The notes beneath the pieces are model-generated. The model saw nothing but the letters and a program-made list of their open reading frames with translations, was not told the origin of the DNA and searched no databases. Below, one piece after another: positions 1-64,000 of a stretch of 64,000 bases of DNA. The position numbers and the translations under genes were made by a program. The stretch covers positions 2,631-66,630 of the forward strand of contig DAOTMJ010000027.1 in the NCBI GenBank assembly GCA_035450225.1, read 5' to 3'. Source of the DNA: Candidatus Hydrogenedentota bacterium. GTDB lineage: Bacteria; Hydrogenedentota; Hydrogenedentia; Hydrogenedentales; SLHB01. How positions within the stretch are numbered: position 1 is the first letter of the stretch; every line of letters begins with the position of its first letter.

Positions 1-37
1 GTCAATCATGGAGTGCCGGCATGGCAGATACAAGGGC

Positions 38-118
38 GAATGCGTGGGACAGGCTGTCCAGCCTGTCTGTCCACGGACATGGCGTGGCTTCAAAAAAGAC
101 AGACTGGACAGTCTGTCC
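38..118. repeat. Two REP-like hairpins, family A (GGACAGGCTG-TC-CAGCCTGTC; GACAGACTG-GA-CAGTCTGTC)
   Basis: Perfect 9-10-bp stems at 47-67 and 98-118, each preceded by an A-rich run / GCGTGG. Confidence 0.65.
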
Positions 119-282
119 TACGCTCCGCGCCCAAAGGACTTCCTTTACGTGTTCGGAACAGGTGATCCATGCATGAACTCGGCCCTCTCAAGTAATGGCA
201 AAAAAAGTTGTATTATAGAAATGGCCTGTATATTCTTGACGCGGTCCATGGCGCAAAAACACACATTTCAAGGTGCGGTGAA

Positions 283-1254
283 ATGAAGAAACAAATCCTG
301 CTGGGTCTCGGCGCCGCGTTCCTCACCATTGTTGCCCTTCTTTGCGCCGCATTTGTATGGACGTTTCGCGTGCACCGCGTCGTTTTTCCAAAGGAGTCTA
401 TTTCCGACGCCCAGTGGCAAGAGTATCTTGCCGCGCCGCAAAAAACGGAAACGACCTTGAAAGTGCTGACGTGGAATATTCAGATGCTGCCCGTCATGCT
501 GTCTCCCTTCAGCGAAGACCTGCAGAAACTGCAAGCCATCCGCGCGCCATGTATTGCCGACTCGCTCATCCAGGAAGATTACGATGTCATCTGTTTTCAG
601 GAAGCCTTCGACCAGGAATCGCTGGAAAAACTGAAGGAAAAACTGAAGGACGCCTACCCTTTCATGGTATATCCCCGTTATGCTTCCCGCTGGCGTGCGC
701 TGAGCAACGGCGTTTGGTTCATAAGCCGCGTGCCGATACGATACGTGGATCACGTGACCTATCCCCAATTGCACGGCGTGAACTGGTGGACCTCGAAGGG
801 ATGCTGCCTGATTGAAGGCGTGAAGGACGGTCTGCGGTTCCAGATGGCCGGCACCCATTTCCCCACGGGCAAACAAAGCGACAAGGACGCGGCCGTCGAG
901 GCAATCCGCGAACGATTGCTGCCCCTTCGCCAGAATCGCGTGCCCTTCATAGCGCTCGGCGATTTCAACACAGACAAGGGCACGCCGGCCTACGACGCGC
1001 TGTTGAAAATCCTCGAATTGCAGGACGCGCCGATAAACGATCCCCGGCCCTATTCGTCCGATCCGGAAAATTCATGGAAAAGAGGGAAAAAAGGCCGGCC
1101 CTCGCTTATCGATCACGTCCTGCTCAACCCGAACGGGAGCGGAACCGCATTCGACACACAGACCATTTTCCGTTCCACTTCCTATTATGGCAAAAAACTG
1201 ATAGACCTCTCCGATTATTACGGCGTCTCGGCGGATATCATCCTGCGGCCCTGA
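283..1254 (+). CDS. Endonuclease/exonuclease/phosphatase (EEP) family protein, sphingomyelinase/phosphodiesterase-like, N-terminal membrane anchor
   Basis: ORF 208..1254. The likely start is ATG 283 (MKKQILLGLGAAFLTIVALLCAAFVW is a TM/signal segment). EEP-like blocks seen: LTWNIQ, DVICFQEA, GDFN, IDHVLL. Confidence 0.7.
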   Translation: MKKQILLGLGAAFLTIVALLCAAFVWTFRVHRVVFPKESISDAQWQEYLAAPQKTETTLKVLTWNIQMLPVMLSPFSEDLQKLQAIRAPCIADSLIQEDYDVICFQEAFDQESLEKLKEKLKDAYPFMVYPRYASRWRALSNGVWFISRVPIRYVDHVTYPQLHGVNWWTSKGCCLIEGVKDGLRFQMAGTHFPTGKQSDKDAAVEAIRERLLPLRQNRVPFIALGDFNTDKGTPAYDALLKILELQDAPINDPRPYSSDPENSWKRGKKGRPSLIDHVLLNPNGSGTAFDTQTIFRSTSYYGKKLIDLSDYYGVSADIILRP

Positions 1255-1332
1255 CAAGAAATATCAATAAGGCCTCCCTGTTCACTTCGACGCCATTCCA
1301 TCCCCCTGTCCGTCGCTCTTCCCTTTTTTCTT

Positions 1333-1773
1333 TCACAGGTTTTTGACCTGTAAATTGGGGATTTTAGCCTCCAAGTAGGAGGCCACCAAACGGCGGTGGC
1401 ATTTTTCAGGCGTTGGCTCGCTGCAAAGAAGACATCCATAATCGAGAAGATCGGCCGTCAACAGCGTTTCTATTTTCCGCTCCTCAATCAGAGGCAGAAA
1501 ACACGCCTCATACTCTTCCCAGTCTCCATGCTTCTTCTTGTATTTATCCAGGATCTCCTTGGTCGGCGCGCATTCCGGCACGTGAAGATAATCGGCATTG
1601 CATATTTCCCGCAGAAAGAATTTCAAGTCGTCGCGCTTGGCAAATCCGGCCAATTGCGACACGTTGTTCAATCGGATGTCAAGAACACGCCGAACCCGCG
1701 ATTCACGCAAAACCGTGAAGAAGCGTTCCGCGCCCTTCTTCGTAAAACCGATGGTAAAAAGATGTATGGCCAT
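1333..1773 (-). CDS. DUF488 family protein
   Basis: 146-aa ORF beginning MAIHLFTIGFTKKGAERFF...VLDIRL, the characteristic DUF488 N-terminus. Coding-like composition. Confidence 0.6.
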   Translation of the reverse strand: MAIHLFTIGFTKKGAERFFTVLRESRVRRVLDIRLNNVSQLAGFAKRDDLKFFLREICNADYLHVPECAPTKEILDKYKKKHGDWEEYEACFLPLIEERKIETLLTADLLDYGCLLCSEPTPEKCHRRLVASYLEAKIPNLQVKNL

Positions 1774-1992
1774 TCCGTTTCCTCACGGCGCAACGAATTC
1801 GTTTTCCGTTTGATATTCCTCGTCATGGTGAAAGGCGATGCGCTCGCCCTGCCGGTCGTAGGCTTCCTCTCTCGTTGAAAAAATCCCGAAAAATTTGTTC
1901 GTTTGACAGGGCGACAAGGCCTCTCTATAATCATTGTTCCGGAGGGCGTGGTGCATCCGGGCGAACATCCCAAGGGACAGGTGTTTTCATGA

Positions 1993-3471
<1,479 letters not shown>

Positions 3472-3474
3472 GCC

Positions 3475-5022
3475 ATGCAGGGAATGGGCCGGCCCGTCGT
3501 CGTGCTGGACTTTGGCGCGCAATACAGCAAACTCATCGCCCGCCGCGTCCGCGAAGCCAACGTGTACAGTTTGATTGTCCCCTACAACGCGCCCTTGGAC
3601 GACCTTCGCGCCCTGAATCCCGCCGGCATCATTTTCAGCGGCGGACCGGCCAGCGTCCATGCGCCGGGCGCGCCCATGCCGGATCCGGGCGTATTCGACA
3701 TGGGCATTCCCATTCTCGGAATTTGCTACGGCGTGCAACTGTTCGCGCACATGCTCGGTGGAAAGGTGGAGCGATCGGACCGCCGCGAATACGGCATCGC
3801 CCATCTGGAAAATAGCGACACATCGGGTTTTCTCGATGGAATAGATCCTCGCACGCAGGTCTGGATGAGCCACGGCGATGCCATTTCGATCATGCCGCCG
3901 GGATTTGAGGTCATCGGACGAACCGAAAACTGTCCCTACGCGGCCATCGTCAAGCCGGACGCGCGGTTCTACGGCGTGCAGTTTCATCCCGAAGTCGTCC
4001 ATACGCCCCAAGGACCGCGCATCCTGTCCAATTTCGTGCATAAAATCTGCGGATGCGCCTCCGACTGGACCATGGGATCCTTTGTGGAACACGCCATAGC
4101 CGATATCCGCGCGCGCGTGGGAAGCAAGCGTGTGTTGTGCGGTCTGAGCGGCGGTGTGGATTCGAGCGTCGCCGCCATGCTGATACACCGTGCCATCGGC
4201 GACCGGCTCACCTGTGTATTCGTGAACAACGGGCTGCTGCGCAAGGGCGAACCGGAGATGGTCCAAGAAGTGTTTCGCGGACATTTCCACATTGACTTAC
4301 GCTACGTGGACGCCGAGGCCCGATTTCTTTCCGAGTTGGCGGGGGTCGGCGAACCCGAAGCCAAACGAAAAATAATCGGACGCGTATTTGTCGAGGTGTT
4401 CGAGGAAGAAGCGGCTAAATTGGGGCACAACGATTTTCTGGCGCAAGGCACCCTGTACCCGGACGTGATAGAAAGCATGTCCGCGACCGGTGGACCTTCG
4501 GCCGTTATCAAAAGCCACCACAATGTGGGCGGTCTGCCGGACATCATGCAATTGGAACTGCTCGAACCCCTTCGGGAATTGTTCAAGGACGAGGTGCGCG
4601 CCGTGGGCAAGGAACTCGGCCTGCCGGACGACATCGTATGGCGCCACCCGTTTCCGGGACCAGGGCTTGGCGTGCGATGCATCGGAAACGTGACAAAGGA
4701 AAGACTGGACACGCTGCGCGCCGCGGACGCCATTTTTATTGAAGAAATCAAAAAGGCCGGATTGTATCGCGAAATATGGCAGGCGCTCGTTTGTCTATTG
4801 CCGGTCAAAAGCGTCGGCGTTCAAGGGGATGAACGCACCTACGAGGAAGTCTGCTCGCTGCGCGCCGTAACCAGCGAGGATGCCATGACCGCCGACTGGT
4901 ATCGTTTTCCGCCGGAGGTCTTGCAGCGCACCGCCAACCGAATTTGCAACGAAGTCAAGCACATCAACCGCGTGCTATACGACATAACATCAAAACCACC
5001 CGGAACCATTGAGTGGGAGTGA
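3475..5022 (+). CDS. guaA: GMP synthase (glutamine-hydrolysing)
   Basis: 515 aa. GATase class-I N-terminus (ICYGVQL, HPEV), ATP-PPase SGGVDSS, and C-terminal dimerisation domain ending TIEWE. Start is 4 nt after the guaB stop, with a GAGG RBS. Confidence 0.95.
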
Positions 5023-5026
5023 AACT

Positions 5027-5599
5027 TTACGCAAGTTCCTTTTCATTCTTCACGATTTTTGAAACCAACCCGTATTCAAGCGCCTCTTCCGCACTCATCC
5101 AAAAGTCGCGGTCGCTGTCTGCGCTGACTTTTTCCAGCGGCTGTCCCGTTTCCCTGGAAATCAGGAGATTGAGCCTTTCGCGGGTTTTGATAATTTGCTG
5201 CGCGGTGATACGAATATCCTTTGCTTGACCGCCGGCTCCGCCGCTTGGCTGATGCATCATATACCGTGTATTGGGCAAGGAAAATCTTCTATCATGAGGA
5301 ACGGAAAGCAAAATGGGAATTCCCATGCTCGCCACGTATCCCGCACCGATAATTGTCAACGGAGCCGTGATGAACTTGAACACATCGTGTATGGCGAATC
5401 CAACATCCACCATGCCGCCGGGCGTGGTAAGAATTATGCGGATGGGATCCTGCGATTCGGAATTGAGCAGGACGGCCTGTGCAATGACCCGTTCGGCGAG
5501 TTCCTCCTCGATGGGTCCCCCTATGAGAATCGTGCGCACTTTCAAAAGACGATCGAGAATACTCGCATTGGGATTCGGTGAAGATTCAGAACAAGACAT
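5027..5599 (-). CDS. clpP: ATP-dependent Clp protease proteolytic subunit
   Basis: ClpP triad context seen: GYVASMG (Ser) and MMHQPSGG (His). N-terminal block ILDRLLKVRTILIGGPIEE. The ORF extends to a TTG at 5650, but ATG 5599 has an AAAGGAAA RBS. Confidence 0.85.
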   Translation of the reverse strand: MSCSESSPNPNASILDRLLKVRTILIGGPIEEELAERVIAQAVLLNSESQDPIRIILTTPGGMVDVGFAIHDVFKFITAPLTIIGAGYVASMGIPILLSVPHDRRFSLPNTRYMMHQPSGGAGGQAKDIRITAQQIIKTRERLNLLISRETGQPLEKVSADSDRDFWMSAEEALEYGLVSKIVKNEKELA

Positions 5600-5668
5600 G
5601 AAACAGTTTCCTTTATCGAAGCATAAACGGTAGGAAAAAATCGCCGGCAAGAAGGACGATTTAATACA

Positions 5669-6775
5669 CTACAGCCGTATCGGCATCACGACATTGGTAT
5701 AGGTCTCGCTGGCTGCATCGGTACAAGGCTTTATAATGCCCGGACTGGTCGTATCCTTCAGAATCAATGATACCATTTCCGTGTCAATATTGCGGAGTAT
5801 ATCGAGTATAAAATCAGGATTGAATGCGATTTCGACCTGATCGCCATCGTATTCAACGCTTAGTTCTTCCTCGTATTCGCCCACTTCCGGCGTTACAACC
5901 TTCAACTGCAAAAGGCCGCTGCTCAATATAAACCGGACATTGTTGAACTTTTCGTTCGTCATCGTCCGCGTACGCCGCACTGCTTCCGTAAAAGCCAACG
6001 TATTGATTACCACTTCCTTGTCATGCTTCTTTGGAATGACCACCTCGTAATTTGGAAAGTTTCCCTCAATAATGGCTGTCACGAGCCTTGTATTATTGAA
6101 CGAGAAAGCCGTTTGCGCTTCGTCAAGATAAACGGAGACTTCGCCTTCCGTGCCGAGCAACCGTTCAAGTTCGCCTATCATTTTGCCGGGTATAATGACT
6201 TTAATATTGGCCCCCTCCGGAATGCCTTCACTCTCGGAACAAACACTCATGCGGCGGCCATCCGTCGCCACAACCGTCAATCGTCCTTCTTGGATTTCAA
6301 ACAGCAATCCCGTAAGATTGTACCTTGCCTGGTCGGTGCAAATAGCAAAAGACGTTTTCAAAAACATCTTCTTGAGCATTTCCTGCGAAAACACGAGTGG
6401 TTCTATATTGTCGAATGCACGAATGGGGGGAAATTCCTCCGGAGGCATGCTAAAGAGACGGGTCCTAATCCGTCCGCAACTCAGATGGATTATATTGTTG
6501 TCCCCGAGTTCCATCGTGACATCCGCATCGGGCAATTCCGAAAGAATCATTGCCAATCGCTGTGACGAAACTGTAAACGATCCCGGTTCCTCGACCGTAC
6601 AATCCACCATGCACTCAATGCTGACCTTCAGATCGGTGGCCGAAAGACGAACGGCGCTCTCACACGTTTCCAAGAGGAGATGCGAAAGAATCGGCAGAGC
6701 CGTTTTGGAGGACACGACGGTTTTGGCCCGATTGACGTTGTCCAGCAAGTCTTGTCGTGGAATTCGGATTTTCAT
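5669..6775 (-). CDS. dnaN: DNA polymerase III subunit beta (sliding clamp)
   Basis: Begins MKIRIPRQDLLDNVNRAKTVVSSKTALPILSHLLLE, a typical beta-clamp N-terminus, and is about 368 aa. ATG 6775 is preceded by GGAGAG. Confidence 0.9.
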   Translation of the reverse strand: MKIRIPRQDLLDNVNRAKTVVSSKTALPILSHLLLETCESAVRLSATDLKVSIECMVDCTVEEPGSFTVSSQRLAMILSELPDADVTMELGDNNIIHLSCGRIRTRLFSMPPEEFPPIRAFDNIEPLVFSQEMLKKMFLKTSFAICTDQARYNLTGLLFEIQEGRLTVVATDGRRMSVCSESEGIPEGANIKVIIPGKMIGELERLLGTEGEVSVYLDEAQTAFSFNNTRLVTAIIEGNFPNYEVVIPKKHDKEVVINTLAFTEAVRRTRTMTNEKFNNVRFILSSGLLQLKVVTPEVGEYEEELSVEYDGDQVEIAFNPDFILDILRNIDTEMVSLILKDTTSPGIIKPCTDAASETYTNVVMPIRL

Positions 6776-7037
6776 TTGAGACTCTCCATGCATGCGCTAG
6801 GAATTGTTGTCCGTATTATTATCTAGGGTTATATAAAAATCAAGTCTTAGTAATAGTCGTGTTTGTTGAATCGGTTGATATCCGGGCAAGTCGTTGCGTG
6901 AAAGCAATTTGGCTTGTTTCTATGTTGACAGTTTTTTCTGACAAATCATCCACGCTGTCCACACCTTTGGATTTCTAAAGAACTTTGAATGGCCTTTCAC
7001 GGTCTGATGACCGCCAAGAATGTCAATTTTTTTCCAT

Positions 7038-7046
7038 TTATGCACA
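7038..7046 (+). promoter_or_regulatory. DnaA box (TTATGCACA)
   Basis: Matches the TTATNCACA consensus. Confidence 0.5.
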
Positions 7047-7162
7047 CCTTATACGTAGTTGACGCGCTTTGAAAGTGGAAACCAAGTTTCACGGTTTTAG
7101 AACAGGTTATTCACCTTTGCTTCCTCAAGCATTGGAAGGGATTGGGAACTTCTTCAAACAGT

Positions 7163-7171
7163 TTATCCACA
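7163..7171 (+). promoter_or_regulatory. DnaA box (TTATCCACA, perfect)
   Basis: Exact consensus 9-mer. Confidence 0.55.
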
Positions 7172-7374
7172 GGTCGTGAAACATTTTTGTTTGAGAATTC
7201 AATAAAGTCACCTTTCGATAATGATTCGTATAAATCGTTTATAAACAATGTTTTAGAAAAATATCGACAACGGGCTTTATCGCCGTCTAATTGTCCATAA
7301 GTCTTTATATACAAATGAGTTATGGTAAAAAATAAAACATCTTTCATTTCAAGGTAAATGCTTGCGGTTTATAG

Positions 7375-7383
7375 TTATCCACA
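7375..7383 (+). promoter_or_regulatory. DnaA box (TTATCCACA, perfect)
   Basis: Exact consensus 9-mer, 150 bp upstream of the sialidase gene. Confidence 0.55.
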
Positions 7384-7532
7384 TCTTATCAACATATAAT
7401 TTTAGTACGAATATTGATAAATTGAAAATCAAATTCTAATAATTTGCCCGTTCCTCCTGTTTTTCGTTATGGTTGATAAAGCGAGGCAAAGAAGAATTTC
7501 AGTTGCATATTACATATAGGAAATGAACATTT

Positions 7533-8693
7533 ATGATTGTGCTTTATAAAGAACCACTTCGTAAATTCTTTATTATGTTGCCGGTGGCGATAATAGCGTT
7601 CATCGCTTTCGTCAATTCTTCGTTTGGAGAGAATGAAGGGATGAAACGTATTGTACTTTTCGAGTCAGGTAAAGGAGGTTATGACACTTACCGGATTCCG
7701 GCCATTGTCAAAACGACAAAGGGAACATTGCTTGCCTTTTGTGAAGGTCGAAAGAATAGTTCGTCGGATACCGGCAATATTGATCTGTTATTGCAACGAA
7801 GCCTTGACAATGGTTTCACGTGGGATGAAACGAAAGTCATTGTTGATGACGGTAACGACACCTGTGGAAATCCCTGTCCCATCGTGGATCAAAAGACCGG
7901 AACCCTTGTGCTTTTATTGACGAAGAACAAAGGCCATGAGAACGAATTCCAGATTATAAATGGCACGGCATCGCCACGCACCGTGTGGCTGACCCGAAGC
8001 ACGGACGACGGCGTTACATGGTCTACGCCATCGAACATCAGTTCGGAGGTTTGCAAACCGGATTTTCGCTGGTATGCGACGGGTCCATGTCACGGGATTC
8101 AACTTGCCGGGGGACGTATGGTTGCCCCGTGCGATCACTCGACGGGTCCGGCATTCGACGACATGCATTCGCATGTCATATTCAGCGATGACGGCGGGAT
8201 GTCTTGGCAAATCGGCGGCATCCTTGATTCGCGCACCAACGAGTGCACCGCGGTCCAATTGGCCGATGGTTCTCTTTATTTGAATATGCGCAACTATCGA
8301 AACACGAATCGTCGCGCCGTGTCTGTTAGTTCCGACAACGGCATGACGTGGCAATCTTGTCGCGATGACGAAGCCTTACTCGATCCGGTTTGTCAAGCCA
8401 GCGTATTACGATTCAGCATAGAAAAAGACGATGGAAAGAACCGCGTCCTGTTCTCAAATCCCGCCAGCAAGAAACGCGAGAATATGACAGTCCGACTCAG
8501 TTATGACGAATGCAGGACATGGCCTGTTTCCAAATCATTGTGGAACGGACCTTCCGCCTATTCTGATCTTGTAGTCACGGCGGATGGAAAGATTGGATGT
8601 TTGTTCGAGTGTGGCGTAACGAAACCCTATGAGACAATTACTCTCGCACTGTTTTCACTCGAATGGCTGACCGGCGGCGCGGATAGTCCATGA
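7533..8693 (+). CDS. Exo-alpha-sialidase (GH33, BNR/Asp-box), secreted
   Basis: YRIP motif (the sialidase FRIP variant) and four Asp-boxes: SLDNGFTW, STDDGVTW, SDDGGMSW, SSDNGMTW. N-terminal signal peptide; the start may instead be MLPVAII at 7575. Confidence 0.85.
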   Translation: MIVLYKEPLRKFFIMLPVAIIAFIAFVNSSFGENEGMKRIVLFESGKGGYDTYRIPAIVKTTKGTLLAFCEGRKNSSSDTGNIDLLLQRSLDNGFTWDETKVIVDDGNDTCGNPCPIVDQKTGTLVLLLTKNKGHENEFQIINGTASPRTVWLTRSTDDGVTWSTPSNISSEVCKPDFRWYATGPCHGIQLAGGRMVAPCDHSTGPAFDDMHSHVIFSDDGGMSWQIGGILDSRTNECTAVQLADGSLYLNMRNYRNTNRRAVSVSSDNGMTWQSCRDDEALLDPVCQASVLRFSIEKDDGKNRVLFSNPASKKRENMTVRLSYDECRTWPVSKSLWNGPSAYSDLVVTADGKIGCLFECGVTKPYETITLALFSLEWLTGGADSP

Positions 8694-8701
8694 TAGGCCC
8701 A

Positions 8702-10411
8702 TCAGCGCAGGGATAATTCCGCAAATACTTTTTGCCAGTTTCCTTGAAAGACTTTTCCTAACTGTATTTCACGGAAAAGCCGTGCGATTGTGGATCCGAG
8801 CGGCCCAAAGGATTCAGGAGACTCCGCGCCGACCCACTTTGCGACGAATGGCAGGATCGAATCCAAGTCATCCGTCTCGAGCGAAAGCAGGCCGAACAGG
8901 GGCATGTCGGGTTCAATGGACGACGCGTGCATTTCGAGAATAGCTGTTTTTTGGTTGCTAGCCAAGGCTTGAGCCAATCGGCGGCACGATTCCCGCTCGG
9001 TTGCAGCAATAGCCACATTCCCAAGGCGTCCCAGGAAAAAATAGGGGGGATAATCGGCGAAGCGTGCGCCGGGGACGTTTGGATCTTCAATCCACGGGGC
9101 CGATGACTGTGTCTTTTCAATCATCGCCTTGAGCGAGTCGAATTCCGAAACTTCGGCCAATGCGAACACGCGCGGAGAACCATTCCCGCCGACAATGCCC
9201 AGCGCCGTCTCGCCGTTCAGGAAATGAAAAGATCGAAAGAAGCCGATGGGATCGTGGATGTCTTCGGCATGAAAAGGAATCCATCTTTGTCGAAGCAGAT
9301 CCCGGACGTTTTCCGTCAATTGCAGGCACAAAAAGGCTTGGCATTCTTCAGGCATGAACGCGCCGAGCCGGGCTGGTTTCGCGTTTCCTATAATGGCCGC
9401 GTAGCGGGTATGCGCGGAAAGGTCCAGCCATGCGGCAAACTCGATCCCTTTTTCCGTGACATCCAACGTCGAAATACACGGATCGCTTCCCATGGATGCG
9501 GCGATCGGATTGTGCAGGACATTGTTCAATCCGGATGGTTTTTTTTCGGCCACTGCGATGCGTCTTAAATATTCGGACAATTCGGGCTGAAGATTGTAGA
9601 GGCGATCCAAGCGTGTTGCGCATACCACCGGCCCCGGCGCCTTGGCCGGGCATTCGGGGGCGCCGTACCGTACCGACGCGGGTTTGGATATCCTCTCCAG
9701 CGCTTCCCGAAGCATGGGAACGTGGTTGCCAACAAAGAGAAGTTTTCCCGCGACGCCACAGGCCATGCCGTCCGCGTGGATTCGAATGGTAAAATTTTCA
9801 ACGATTTCTTCGCGGAGAGGTTCTCCGCCGAGCACAATCTCAAGAAGATTTTCCAAGCGGCTCAACGCCAGAGCGGGATCGATGCACCCTATCACGGCCA
9901 CGGCGTTTATGAAATCGGAGTGGAACCAATTATTGGTATGTTTTCGGTTCGCGCCGGCGGGAAGGGCTTGCCACCATGCCGTGCCCGATTCCGCCAGTTC
10001 CGTGACCTTCCGCGCATGCAGGGCCACCGGGGACGGATCGAGAAAAAGTCCGAAAGGCGCGCCGGGATCCAGTCCGTAGGTCTGTAGCATATCCGACAGG
10101 GTTTTCTGTTCGGAAAGGCCGCTGTCGCGAAGCCATTGCATGAGGATGCGGGCGGCTCCATCCGCCGGTTCCGTGCCGGGGTCTGAAAACAAACCAGCCA
10201 GCAGATGTATTTTCTTCATGAGGTCGTTCATGGGCGGAAAGGCCAGAGACAAGGCGGCTGATTCGGGGGCAAGCCGCAGGATATCCTGCGCGGAAGCAGG
10301 CGAAGGTTCGTCTTCACCTTTAGCCGGAAAGACGGCAAGCGCCGTCGAAACGACAAGCGTAACCGCCGCTATCCGCACATAACGTTTTGATCTCATGTAT
10401 TTCGATTCCAT
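8702..10411 (-). CDS. Hypothetical secreted protein (last gene of 6-gene operon)
   Basis: 569-aa ORF with N-terminal signal peptide (RIAAVTLVVSTALAVFPA). Balanced coding composition. Start abuts the stop of the upstream membrane-protein gene. Confidence 0.5.
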   Translation of the reverse strand: MESKYMRSKRYVRIAAVTLVVSTALAVFPAKGEDEPSPASAQDILRLAPESAALSLAFPPMNDLMKKIHLLAGLFSDPGTEPADGAARILMQWLRDSGLSEQKTLSDMLQTYGLDPGAPFGLFLDPSPVALHARKVTELAESGTAWWQALPAGANRKHTNNWFHSDFINAVAVIGCIDPALALSRLENLLEIVLGGEPLREEIVENFTIRIHADGMACGVAGKLLFVGNHVPMLREALERISKPASVRYGAPECPAKAPGPVVCATRLDRLYNLQPELSEYLRRIAVAEKKPSGLNNVLHNPIAASMGSDPCISTLDVTEKGIEFAAWLDLSAHTRYAAIIGNAKPARLGAFMPEECQAFLCLQLTENVRDLLRQRWIPFHAEDIHDPIGFFRSFHFLNGETALGIVGGNGSPRVFALAEVSEFDSLKAMIEKTQSSAPWIEDPNVPGARFADYPPYFFLGRLGNVAIAATERESCRRLAQALASNQKTAILEMHASSIEPDMPLFGLLSLETDDLDSILPFVAKWVGAESPESFGPLGSTIARLFREIQLGKVFQGNWQKVFAELSLR

Positions 10412-37600: not shown

Positions 37601-39129
37601 CAGATACCCGTCTTGTCCAGTTCGTAGCAGGTCTGGGGATTGATGACGGCGCATTCCTTCATCACATCCTTTGACCAGGTGTTTAGCTCGAACTGCCTGC
37701 GCTCCTCATCATAGAAGTAGATATATCCGATCTTGCTTTCGGTCAGGCCGATGGCCTTTTCCAGCGCATAATCGAGGAAATCCTGCCGGTTTTCGGCGCG
37801 ATATTGCAGAATGTCCGCCAGTACTTTCAGGCGCTGCATATTTCGTTGGTTCTGTTCCTCGACTCGTTCGCGCGTCCGGCGAATGGAGATCAAAGGCGCC
37901 AGGTAGGAAGCGACGGATTCCATCCGGCTTTCGTCGGTTTCATCGTATTCCGTCTCCTTGTTCGCCACGACAATCAATCCAAACAGTTCGTCTTCAAAGA
38001 AAATGGGAACCGCAATGCACCTCGTCAACGACACATGACCGGATGGCGGATGCAACGGCGCATTGGTTCGCAGGGTCCGTTTTTCCAACAGGGATTGCCC
38101 CCAAAGACCGCCCCATGCCGCGCGCGGAAACACGAAGGTTTTGTCCCGAACCTGGCAACAATCCCAAACATGACGGGTAAGCGAGGGACAGACCAGATCG
38201 CCGTTGTCGTTGATGTAACCGAACAAGCCCAGCGGGCTTCCTGTGTGCCGCAGGATTAGTTCCAGGACGTCCGCGTAGGCCTCGTCGCCCGGATGCGTCA
38301 ACAGGACGTCGGCAATGCCCTTTTGCAGGGCCAGTTCGGACAAGGTTTGCCGCAAGGTTTCTTCCGTCCGTTTTTTATCGGTGATGTCTAAAAATACGGT
38401 GGAAAAAAACCCTTTGGCCGGGCTTCCCGCGGTTATGGCGAGATGTTTTCCGATGGGAGGGAAAAAACTCTCGAAAGAAGCGGCTTCGCCCGTTTCCGCA
38501 ACACGTGTGTAGATATCGAGAAAGGGGGCCGATCCCGTTCCATACAGTTCGGAGGCCAGGGATCCCGCGGCGCGATCCCTGGACAGGCCGGTGATGCGTT
38601 CATAGGCGGGATTCACGTCGAGAATCCGGTAATCCACCGCCCGTCCGTCTTTGTAGACGATTTGGTCGAGGCAACAAGCAGCCGCCATGTTTTCGAAGAT
38701 AGCCCGGTACCGTGCCTCGCCTTCCCTTGAGAGGGCCATGATCCGGCCTTGTTCGAAATGCGACCGTATGCGGGCGACACATTCCCTGCCATCGAACGGC
38801 ATGGTGATGCAGTCCACCGCGCCCAAGCGAAATCCCTCTTCGATTTCCGCGGCCTCGATGTTGCGCCCGGCCGAAGCAAGGAACACAACGGGGATGTCGC
38901 GCGTTTCCTTGCGATTCTTCAGGCGGCGGCATACTTCGAGTCCGCTCATGTCCGGCAGGTCCGTTTCGATTGCCATCAGGCCAGGACTATACGTGGACGT
39001 TATCCGTAACGCTTCCTCCCCGCTGGATACTGTTTGCACCGAAAATCCTTCCGAAACAAGGATATTCGAGAGAAATTGCATCGGTTCCGAGTCGTGACCG
39101 ACGATCAGGATTGTATTTGCGTATGCCAT
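34675..39129 (-). CDS. Giant hybrid sensor histidine kinase (REC-PAS-GAF-GAF-PAS-HisKA-HATPase-REC), 1484 aa
   Basis: N-terminal REC ([11 protein letters not shown]...), multiple PAS/GAF-like blocks, [10 protein letters not shown]-box, HATPase [11 protein letters not shown], and C-terminal REC ([13 protein letters not shown]...[11 protein letters not shown]). Confidence 0.85.
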
Positions 39130-63000: not shown

Positions 63001-64000
63001 TTATGGTTTTTCGGCGCGAAGGCCCAAGAGCCGGGCCGCATGCATGCCCGCAACGGCGCCGGACGACCATGCCCACTGCAGATTGTAGCCCCCGGAATCG
63101 CCGTCAATGTCCAGCACCTCGCCGGCAAAATGAACGCCGGGCATCCGCCTCGATTCGAGCGTAACCGGGTCCACCTCGCGGACATCCACCCCGCCCGCAG
63201 TCACTTGCGAAAACATCCACGATTGCGTGCCCGTGCAGGGAAGGGTCCACGCTTTCAGGACGGACGCTATGCGTTCCGTTTCTTTGGCGTCCAGCGTTCC
63301 GCACGGCCGTTGTTGCGCTTCCCGGATGTTCGCCGCCTGCAGCAGGACGGGTATCAGGCGCTTGTGGATAAACCCCACGAAACTGAACGCGATGGATTTT
63401 CCCGGATCGTTCGCCGTACGTTCATTGATCAGGGCCGTCAACGCCTCGCGCGACAACGCCGGAAACAAGTCAATCCGCAGATGCGAGGCGCGCCCGCGCG
63501 TCGTGGCCTCCGAAAGGACCCGACTCAATTGAAGGATGGCCGTTCCGGAAATGCCGTACTTCGTGAACAGCAGTTCGCCGCGCTCCGTCTGCGCCGGGCG
63601 ATCCGACACCCACGCCGCTGCTTCGCCCTGAAGGCTCACGCCCGCGATTTGGTCGAGGTAGGGCGCGTCGAGACGGACTTGGACCAGCGCGGGAAACGGC
63701 TCGACAAGGGCATGGCCCATCGCCCGGGCGATTTTGAACCCGCCGCCGTTGGAGCCCAGATTCGGGGAGGATTGCCCGCCCGCGCACACCACAACGCGCG
63801 ACGCCTCGAAGATCCGCCCGTCGCCGCACACGCACCGGAGTCCCCCGCGCCGCCGTTCGACGGCATGCACGATGGTGTCGCACACCTCCGCCACGCCCCG
63901 TTGCGCCATCTCGTAACGGAGCACGTCGAGAACGCTCGACGCCTGCCGGCTCGCCGGGAACAATTTACCCGCGTCTTCCTCCTCGACCCTTACCCCCAGC
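63001..64000 (-). CDS. HI0933/BaiN-like FAD-dependent flavoprotein (5'-truncated by window end)
   Basis: C-terminal 320 aa of an NAD(FAD)-utilising dehydrogenase family. GGGFKIARAMGH, FAGEVLDIDGDSGGYNLQWAWSSG. The N-terminus lies beyond position 64000. Confidence 0.65.
   Translation of the reverse strand, partial: LGVRVEEEDAGKLFPASRQASSVLDVLRYEMAQRGVAEVCDTIVHAVERRRGGLRCVCGDGRIFEASRVVVCAGGQSSPNLGSNGGGFKIARAMGHALVEPFPALVQVRLDAPYLDQIAGVSLQGEAAAWVSDRPAQTERGELLFTKYGISGTAILQLSRVLSEATTRGRASHLRIDLFPALSREALTALINERTANDPGKSIAFSFVGFIHKRLIPVLLQAANIREAQQRPCGTLDAKETERIASVLKAWTLPCTGTQSWMFSQVTAGGVDVREVDPVTLESRRMPGVHFAGEVLDIDGDSGGYNLQWAWSSGAVAGMHAARLLGLRAEKP

Follow-up and report, generated by a model that had tools for sequence, protein, structure and literature searches.

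A probable dnaN-linked chromosomal replication origin in Candidatus Hydrogenedentota

In Bacillus subtilis, the incC part of oriC carries, upstream of dnaN, a basal unwinding system (BUS) composed of DnaA-boxes #6 and #7, DnaA-trios and an AT-rich 27-mer (Richardson 2016; PMC6669920; PMC8287927), the scaffold of which reads 5'-TAGTAGAAGTAATAGTAG-GGCC-TGTGGATTTGTGGATAAGT (Richardson 2019, PMC6669920; Pelliciari 2021, PMC8287927). Distal boxes are also needed in this bacterium and act over up to 462 bp, probably via a loop. Ori-Finder/DoriC surveys place oriC beside dnaN, with dnaA located elsewhere, in cyanobacteria including Synechococcus elongatus PCC 7942 and Anabaena PCC 7120 (PMC4009838), and bipartite origins are represented by incAB-dnaA-incC of B. 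subtilis and oriC1-dnaA-oriC2 of Helicobacter pylori (PMC8235120). No described origin for Hydrogenedentota was found in the literature searched. Here, we analyze a 64,000-nt stretch of DNA (hereafter, the window) from a Candidatus Hydrogenedentota bacterium (assembly GCA_035450225.1, contig DAOTMJ010000027.1) and, within it, the 757-bp intergenic gap upstream of dnaN at positions 6776-7532 which, judging by its sequence, is very likely to be a functional chromosomal oriC linked to dnaN, with dnaA encoded elsewhere. The gap had been proposed as a candidate oriC in an initial annotation of the window, and this proposal gains support from conserved DnaA boxes, an unwinding module, a local switch of strand asymmetry at third codon positions and the absence of dnaA near dnaN throughout the phylum.

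The Hydrogenedentota loci share with B. subtilis the order and orientation, relative to dnaN, of boxes, a short GC-rich spacer, about six TAG-type trios, an AT tract and dnaN itself. The phylum consensus, AAGTAGTCGTAGTAGTAG-GGCC-TGTGGAAAC-TGTGGATAA, is close to the B. subtilis TAGTAGAAGTAATAGTAG-GGCC-TGTGGATTTGTGGATAA, the modal spacer between box and trios is 12-13 nt, and additional distal boxes lie hundreds of base pairs away. By this layout, the Hydrogenedentota origin appears to be homologous to the dnaN-proximal half of an ancestral dnaA-oriC-dnaN origin, of which incC of B. subtilis is the best-studied example. Unlike the B. subtilis origin, it has no dnaA or incA/incB cluster upstream, this position being taken by a gene for a T2SSE ATPase or, in the window, a sialidase, and its distal boxes form a tandem pair whose distance, ~527 bp, is nearly fixed. 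The window further departs from B. subtilis in that both boxes next to the trios are degenerate and TGTT stands in place of the GC-rich spacer.

A conserved cluster of DnaA boxes upstream of dnaN

The segment 6794-7532 has a GC content of 34.6% and is the lowest-GC 739-bp stretch of the window, so that the AT-rich island previously described at this place is real, although the background is 60.0% GC and not the ~62% given there. Both perfect TTATCCACA boxes reported initially are present, at 7163-7171 and 7375-7383, and so are TTATGCACA at 7038-7046 on the + strand (1 mismatch), which is partly conserved in close relatives, and TTATTCACC at 7107-7115 on the same strand (2 mismatches), which reads TT(A/C)TTCAC in four of four members of the close lineage and corresponds to a TTaTcCACA consensus block in the alignments. 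A further box had escaped notice, TTATCAACA (7386-7394), which stands in tandem with the 7375 box at 11-bp spacing. When chance expectation is taken from 2000 dinucleotide-preserving shuffles of the region itself, two perfect boxes are observed against 0.012 expected, four boxes with at most 1 mismatch against 0.25, and 15 boxes with at most 2 mismatches against 3.1; 11 of these 15 are in the + orientation, reading TTATCCACA on the + strand. The remaining 63 kb of the window contain 1 perfect box and 4 boxes with at most 1 mismatch, none of them clustered. The sole other perfect TTATCCACA of the 64 kb, at 63363-63371 on the minus strand, lies inside a called open reading frame (ORF; 63227-63532) and has no neighboring boxes.

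For the comparative analysis, relatives of dnaN with 64-84% identity were taken from a species-representative genome collection, in which they belong to Hydrogenedentota metagenome-assembled genomes or to otherwise-labelled bins that cluster with them, and a metagenome scan added L029 (94% dnaN identity), L028 (84%) and ~50 distant loci of other phyla. The module was compared among 52 distinct loci, the dnaN identities of which range from 50 to 94%. A box cluster is found at the same place upstream of dnaN in ~50 Hydrogenedentota loci, and alignments of the dnaN-upstream regions show conservation confined to discrete blocks. Starting from dnaN, these blocks are the ribosome-binding site, an AT-rich tract, a six-triplet array, a GC-rich spacer (GGCC/GGGC), TGTGGAAAC and TGTGGATAA, past which come further boxes in both orientations, a composite TTATCCACA-N3-CGTGGAACA ~380-390 nt from the start codon and, at ~580-640 nt, a tandem pair with 11-bp spacing. 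The most enriched 7-mers among 49 upstream regions are fragments of DnaA boxes, with TTATCCA present in 43 of the 49 against 4 expected; TTTTCCA occurs in 32 of the 49 loci, reflecting TTTTCCACA-type boxes that are common in the relatives.

Most of these blocks can be followed in the window. An adjacent pair of box-like sequences at 6946-6963 on the + strand, TCATCCACG followed by CTGTCCACA with 2 mismatches each, aligns with a conserved TTATCCACA..ATCCACA block. The perfect box at 7163 opens a composite (7163-7183, + strand) in which it is followed by GGT and by the inverted box-like CGTGAAACA; about half of the loci have the corresponding composite, at a distance of 374-392 nt from the dnaN ATG, and GTGGAAC is found in 34 of 49 loci against 1.4 expected. 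Between the composite and the distal boxes extends a central AT-rich spacer (7185-7370, 29% GC) with weak, non-conserved box-like sites, among which TTATAAACA at 7239-7247 is conserved in close relatives only. The distal tandem boxes, TTATCCACA-tc-TTATCAACA (7375-7394, + strand), are conserved in the relatives: of the 50 loci with at least 760 bp of upstream sequence, 42 contain a tandem pair with at most 3 mismatches in total at 580-671 nt from the start codon of dnaN. The trio array and the distal boxes are separated by a median of 527 bp (interquartile range 522.5-529, 35 loci), although the intervening sequence diverges freely.

The same contrast between elements and surroundings is seen at short evolutionary distance. 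Within the close lineage comprising the window, L029, L028 and L001, AT tract, trios and main boxes have hardly changed, whereas the rest of the gap has diverged. A comparison of two conspecific strains reveals 23 differences among 757 intergenic sites, but none of these single-nucleotide polymorphisms (SNPs) falls within the ~168 bp of conserved elements, where ~5 would be expected (p ~0.003 by simple arithmetic); the AT tract, the trios, the 6946-6963 pair, the distal tandem boxes and all other conserved boxes are free of them. Thirteen of the 23 SNPs lie in the central spacer, and box-like sites that are not conserved (7261-7269, 7291-7299 and 7305-7313) are hit. These comparisons bear on the view that the gap is merely an AT-rich intergenic or horizontally acquired segment with promoters for dnaN and the adjacent sialidase gene, in which box matches arise by chance. 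It is true that the G+C content at third codon positions (GC3) of the sialidase gene is atypically low (0.52), that the distal AT tract is lineage-specific and that AT-rich DNA easily yields weak box-like and trio-like matches; nevertheless, perfect boxes are ~170 times more frequent than in shuffles of the same region, boxes and trios occupy the same positions in ~50 loci, strain SNPs avoid both, and the spread of dnaN identities shows that the loci are not mis-assembled copies of one sequence. A chance origin of the matches is contradicted by the comparative data and is hardly credible.

Two additional features accompany the cluster in many relatives. A conserved promoter-like TTGCTT-N17-TAGCAT element with a TGn extended -10 lies ~35-45 nt outside the distal tandem boxes and reads through them towards the origin and dnaN (L004-L010, L012, L015, L016, L019, L021, L023, L025, L027, L030, L034-L036, L038, L042 and L045); it is not recognizable in the window or in L029. 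A second DnaA-box cluster is located 20-480 nt after the dnaN stop codon in a subclade (L004-L007, L009, L010, L013-L015, L018-L021, L023, L025, L026, L038, L046 and L047), where one 500-bp bin contains 40 boxes with at most 1 mismatch (25 loci) against a background of 1-2. The boxes of this cluster are nearly all in one orientation; it opens with a tandem TGTGGAnAA pair and includes a stereotyped pair ~210 bp apart around an AT-rich dip, and no conserved trio array was found in it. This subclade resembles the bipartite origins in that dnaN stands between two box clusters, the upstream one with trios and the downstream one without. The gene flanked would be dnaN, however, rather than dnaA. The window has an upstream cluster only: no boxes are found downstream of dnaN, and the downstream cluster is absent from its lineage.

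The putative unwinding module

The site at which the duplex would open is placed here in a short AT-rich tract at 6800-6841 (29% GC), between the DnaA-trios and dnaN, and not in the long A/T tracts at 7200-7450 to which the initial annotation pointed. The least stable 40-mer of the entire 64 kb starts at 6814-6816, with a duplex free energy of -40.25 kcal/mol compared with a window mean of -60.5 (standard deviation 4.6), and in 48 of the 52 loci, the window included, the 30 nt preceding the trios are 67-93% AT. The tract probably also harbors the dnaN promoter, in the form of TTGATT (6843-6838), a 17-nt spacer and AATAAT (6820-6815) on the minus strand. Next to it, the array AAG TCT TAG TAA TAG TCG (6842-6859, + strand) aligns with the phylum consensus AAG TAG TCG TAG TAG TAG. 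Trios of this 3'-GAT-5' type, which appear as 5'-TAG on the + strand, are the proposed single-strand DnaA-binding repeats. The positions of the trio-proximal boxes follow at 6864-6881 on the minus strand, occupied by the degenerate sequences TGTTGAATC (6864-6872, 4 mismatches) and GGTTGATAT (6873-6881, 3 mismatches to TGTGGATAA), which align with TGTGGAAAC/TGTGGATAA in the relatives; the proximal site in L029 is GGTTGATAA, with 2 mismatches.

The published search rules for a BUS specify a box with at most 2 mismatches, a spacer of at most 16 nt with a mode of 13, and at least three consecutive NAN trios (Pelliciari 2021). The window contains three such trios with a central A (TAG TAA TAG, 6848-6856), four of its six aligned trios have a middle A, and the spacer to GGTTGATAT is 13 nt in the register of the alignment (16 nt if a scan places the array 3 nt earlier). 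The polarity 5'-(AT-rich)-(TAG)n-spacer-TGTGGATAA-3', as read from the published B. subtilis scaffold, is found in the window and in all aligned relatives. Of the 52 loci, 49 show a middle A in four or more of the six trios, and in 39 a box of 2 mismatches or fewer lies no further than 16 nt from the array (modal spacer 12-13 nt); the module scores 4.77 on average compared with 1.42 for shuffles.

Other parts of the gap were considered as unwinding sites. A BUS-like arrangement after the 7163 box (TTT TTG TTT, 12-nt spacer) is not conserved in the relatives. At the distal edge, the 7375/7386 boxes, (.T.) trios (ATA ATT TTA GTA) and a tract of 14% GC, which ties for the lowest duplex stability, formally fit the published pattern of a second module; however, L029 already lacks the trio periodicity, and the corresponding sequence of most relatives is not AT-rich. 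This distal AT tract is more simply explained as the promoter region of the sialidase gene, and a second module has a low probability. Direct repeats at 6836-6880 and 7425-7478, taken as a possible duplicated module, are attributable to chance, since 20% of dinucleotide shuffles score equally, and a terminator-like hairpin at 7265-7287, the stem of which is broken by two strain SNPs, is probably also fortuitous. A search of the window against Rfam returned no RNA family, and a check of the gap for small ORFs revealed no convincing hidden gene.

The degeneracy of the trio-proximal boxes, observed in the window and in L001, raises the question of a relic, that is, an ancestral dnaA-oriC-dnaN origin that lost dnaA and, in the lineage of the window, its function, with initiation taking place elsewhere. 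The decay in the window of all the TGTGGATAA-orientation boxes known from relatives and the rearrangement of both flanks compared with other relatives point in the same direction. Low-affinity boxes with 3-4 mismatches work in E. coli oriC, though, and L029, L028, L001 and the window have all retained the trios, AT tract and main boxes despite the divergence of the intergenic sequence around them. Given also that the conserved elements are free of strain SNPs and that the skew switch described below is stronger in the genome of the window than in the relatives, a relic appears very improbable.

Comparison with E. coli, the oriC of which lies between mnmG and mioC, places the gap among origins that are separate from dnaA and in which DnaA boxes of high and low affinity are clustered next to an AT-rich unwinding element. 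In other respects, it is unlike the E. coli origin: the 757 bp contain no GATC, against 4.6 expected from the density in the window, no family of repeated 13-mers is found in the gap, the gene context is different, and E. coli scores weakly for a BUS-type module, in contrast to the clear trio array seen here.

Strand asymmetry, gene orientation and the location of dnaA

Strand asymmetry was assessed through GC3 skew, the skew at third codon positions relative to the + strand, separately for genes on each strand. For + strand genes, the skew is -0.171 to the left of the gap (11 genes, including those of an 8.7-kb leftward extension, L109, from the same species) and -0.010 to the right (10 genes; p = 0.003-0.004); for minus-strand genes, it is -0.062 on the left (3 genes) and +0.073 on the right (25 genes; p = 0.02-0.04). 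The polarity of this local switch is that expected of an origin and not of a terminus. The cumulative GC3 curve over the 72.7 kb of window plus extension is V-shaped, with a minimum at 8576. In pooled relatives, the switch has the same sign in both orientation classes (r ~ +0.036); stricter gene calls were used for them, as looser ORF calls can pick up antisense shadow frames, and the stricter calls weakened the support.

Several observations weigh against the interpretation of the gap as an origin. Raw cumulative G-C has two minima, at ~7 kb and at 38,169, the latter slightly deeper, but this curve is uninformative because coding-strand effects dominate it. The V shape of the GC3 curve is in part confounded by converging gene orientation, and the comparisons among genes of the same orientation are therefore relied upon instead. 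In the relatives, the switch is weak: 14 of 21 loci show it individually and hardly any effect is seen upstream, and the sequence covered from the bacterium's own genome amounts to the 72.7 kb. Some two thirds of the coding sequence on either side is transcribed towards the site (~85% on the left and ~65% on the right for the window with its extension), and the pooled relatives show no co-orientation bias either. Transcription towards the site is head-on to departing forks, a pattern expected at a terminus and unusual for an origin. Finally, the trio-proximal positions within 0-16 bp of the trios of the window carry 3-4 mismatches, rather than the at most 2 that the published search rule allows, and the module score of the window alone is matched by 13% of shuffles; the candidate module of the window is recognized through homology, not through its own score.

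A purely regulatory role of the gap should also be considered, in which it would be a DnaA-controlled regulatory or titration region for dnaN, with DnaA acting as a transcription factor or being sequestered, and the true origin would lie elsewhere, for example beside dnaA. The dnaN promoter must be located in the gap, a promoter-like site overlaps the AT tract, the promoter-like element of many relatives reads through the tandem boxes towards dnaN, and the surrounding gene orientation is not origin-like. Such a region, however, would have no need for a conserved, correctly oriented trio array beside an AT tract, nor for ~10 boxes over 600 bp at fixed geometry, and it would not produce a sign change of GC3 skew that is independent of gene orientation. 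We consider this explanation improbable, and the gap remains best read as the chromosomal origin.

The statement of the initial annotation that the 64 kb lack dnaA holds: tblastn with an E. coli DnaA query, confirmed as DnaA by Pfam, gave a best E-value of 9.9 in the window. With the same query, no dnaA was detected in the 8.7-kb extension, nor at distances of up to 10 kb from dnaN in ~55 Hydrogenedentota loci; as a positive control, 40 of 50 loci from other phyla yielded a dnaA directly upstream of dnaN (E-values of 1e-11 to 1e-114). Because the query finds dnaA in these loci and in none of the Hydrogenedentota ones, the separation of dnaA from dnaN characterizes this phylum and does not reflect a gap in the window. 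That the genome does encode DnaA is suggested by the conserved boxes and trios. The analogy with 'dnaN-only' origins of cyanobacteria, drawn initially, is apt insofar as the origin is adjacent to dnaN and dnaA is not, the trait is phylum-wide and TTTTCCACA-type boxes are common in the Hydrogenedentota relatives, but it is an analogy and does not imply cyanobacterial membership. The phylum is different, so that the arrangement would be either independent or anciently inherited, and the strongest boxes of the window are TTATCCACA and not TTTTCCACA, its set comprising TTATCCACA, TTATCAACA, TTATGCACA and TTATTCACC.

Flanking genes, proposed mechanism and significance

The minus-strand neighbor of the gap is dnaN, as initially assigned, encoding a DNA polymerase III beta clamp of 368 aa (5669-6775) with matches to the N-terminal, central and C-terminal DNA_pol3_beta domains of Pfam (E-values of 1e-28 to 7e-30). 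The open frame extends to an upstream ATG at 6793 (5669-6793), but translation probably starts at the ATG at 6775 (MKIRIP) and the 6793 codon is probably not used, because the proteins of relatives begin with MKI, the 6775 codon is preceded by a GGAGAG ribosome-binding site and a length of 368 aa is also found in public gene calls for this species. This GGAGAG (6782-6787, minus strand) appears as CTCTCC on the + strand and is kept in nearly all relatives.

On its far side, the gap is bounded by a gene for a BNR-repeat sialidase (7533-8693, + strand; Pfam BNR_2, E-value 3.8e-42), which lies outside the origin. Its GC3 of 0.52 contrasts with ~0.75 for typical genes of the window, and it has a GC3 skew opposite to the genes around it. 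The sialidase gene may be a recent acquisition or an inversion at the edge of the origin. The adjoining flank, 7395-7532 (+ strand), is common only to L029 and contains a probable sialidase promoter (TTGATA at 7414, 18 nt, AATAAT at 7443); the tract of 14% GC spans 7395-7445. What stands at this place in most other relatives is the promoter-like motif described above, together with the end of a type II/IV secretion ATPase gene (T2SSE and MshEN domains). In most relatives, this gene ends ~50-200 bp past the tandem boxes and is co-oriented with dnaN, thus reading towards the origin; in the window and L029, the divergent, low-GC3 sialidase gene occupies its place. On the other side, clpP follows dnaN after 18 bp in the window, and clpP, guaA and guaB downstream of dnaN are shared only with L001 (the downstream side of L029 is outside the comparison). 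The unit of origin and dnaN thus appears conserved, with both flanks replaced in the lineage of the window. The divergent arrangement regarded at first as expected at an origin, while present here (dnaN on the minus and sialidase on the plus strand), is a lineage-specific and not a general feature.

Low GC3 extends over positions 1-10000 of the window (0.52-0.66 for the dnaN, clpP, DUF488, phosphatase-family and sialidase genes), compared with 0.70-0.84 further right. Two co-occurring strains of the species (5669-8693 compared with L108 and L110) are almost identical over 10.4 kb, yet 50 of the 52 differences between them are concentrated at this locus, with 19 in dnaN, 23 in the origin and 8 in the sialidase gene, a distribution that looks like an imported recombination tract centered on the origin.

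From the elements, their order, orientation and conservation and the compositional switch, we infer how DnaA binding, unwinding, looping and firing could proceed. DnaA would fill the double-strand boxes over ~600 bp, the strongest being 7163, the 7375/7386 tandem, 7038 and 7107. The weak boxes at 6864-6881 would place an ATP-DnaA oligomer on the trio array at 6842-6859, and this oligomer would stretch one strand and open the AT tract at 6800-6841, whereupon the helicase would be loaded and two forks would leave. The distal tandem boxes, located ~527 bp from the trios across the phylum, would probably feed DnaA to the proximal module via a DNA loop, comparable to the situation at incC of B. subtilis. 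A more elaborate scheme is possible, albeit unlikely in its entirety: a Hydrogenedentota origin of fixed geometry would combine a B. subtilis-like module at dnaN with a tandem pair ~527 bp (~50 helical turns) away and, in most lineages, a promoter firing into it; the subclade would have made it bipartite around dnaN; and the window would represent a natural minimal version that lost the promoter, the downstream cluster and the high-affinity proximal boxes and depends on looping from the tandem boxes.

The gap described here is very probably a genuine oriC, well conserved but ordinary in kind. It provides a well-supported origin position for a candidate phylum without a cultured model, which is useful for orienting and rotating assemblies, for estimating growth rates from metagenome coverage (peak-to-trough ratio) and for comparing origins across bacteria. 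The constant spacing of ~527 bp and the cluster that follows dnaN in some relatives offer leads on the part played by distal boxes in initiation. More broadly, these loci add to the evidence that the module of boxes, trios and AT tract beside dnaN is ancestral in bacteria and outlasts the loss of an adjacent dnaA.

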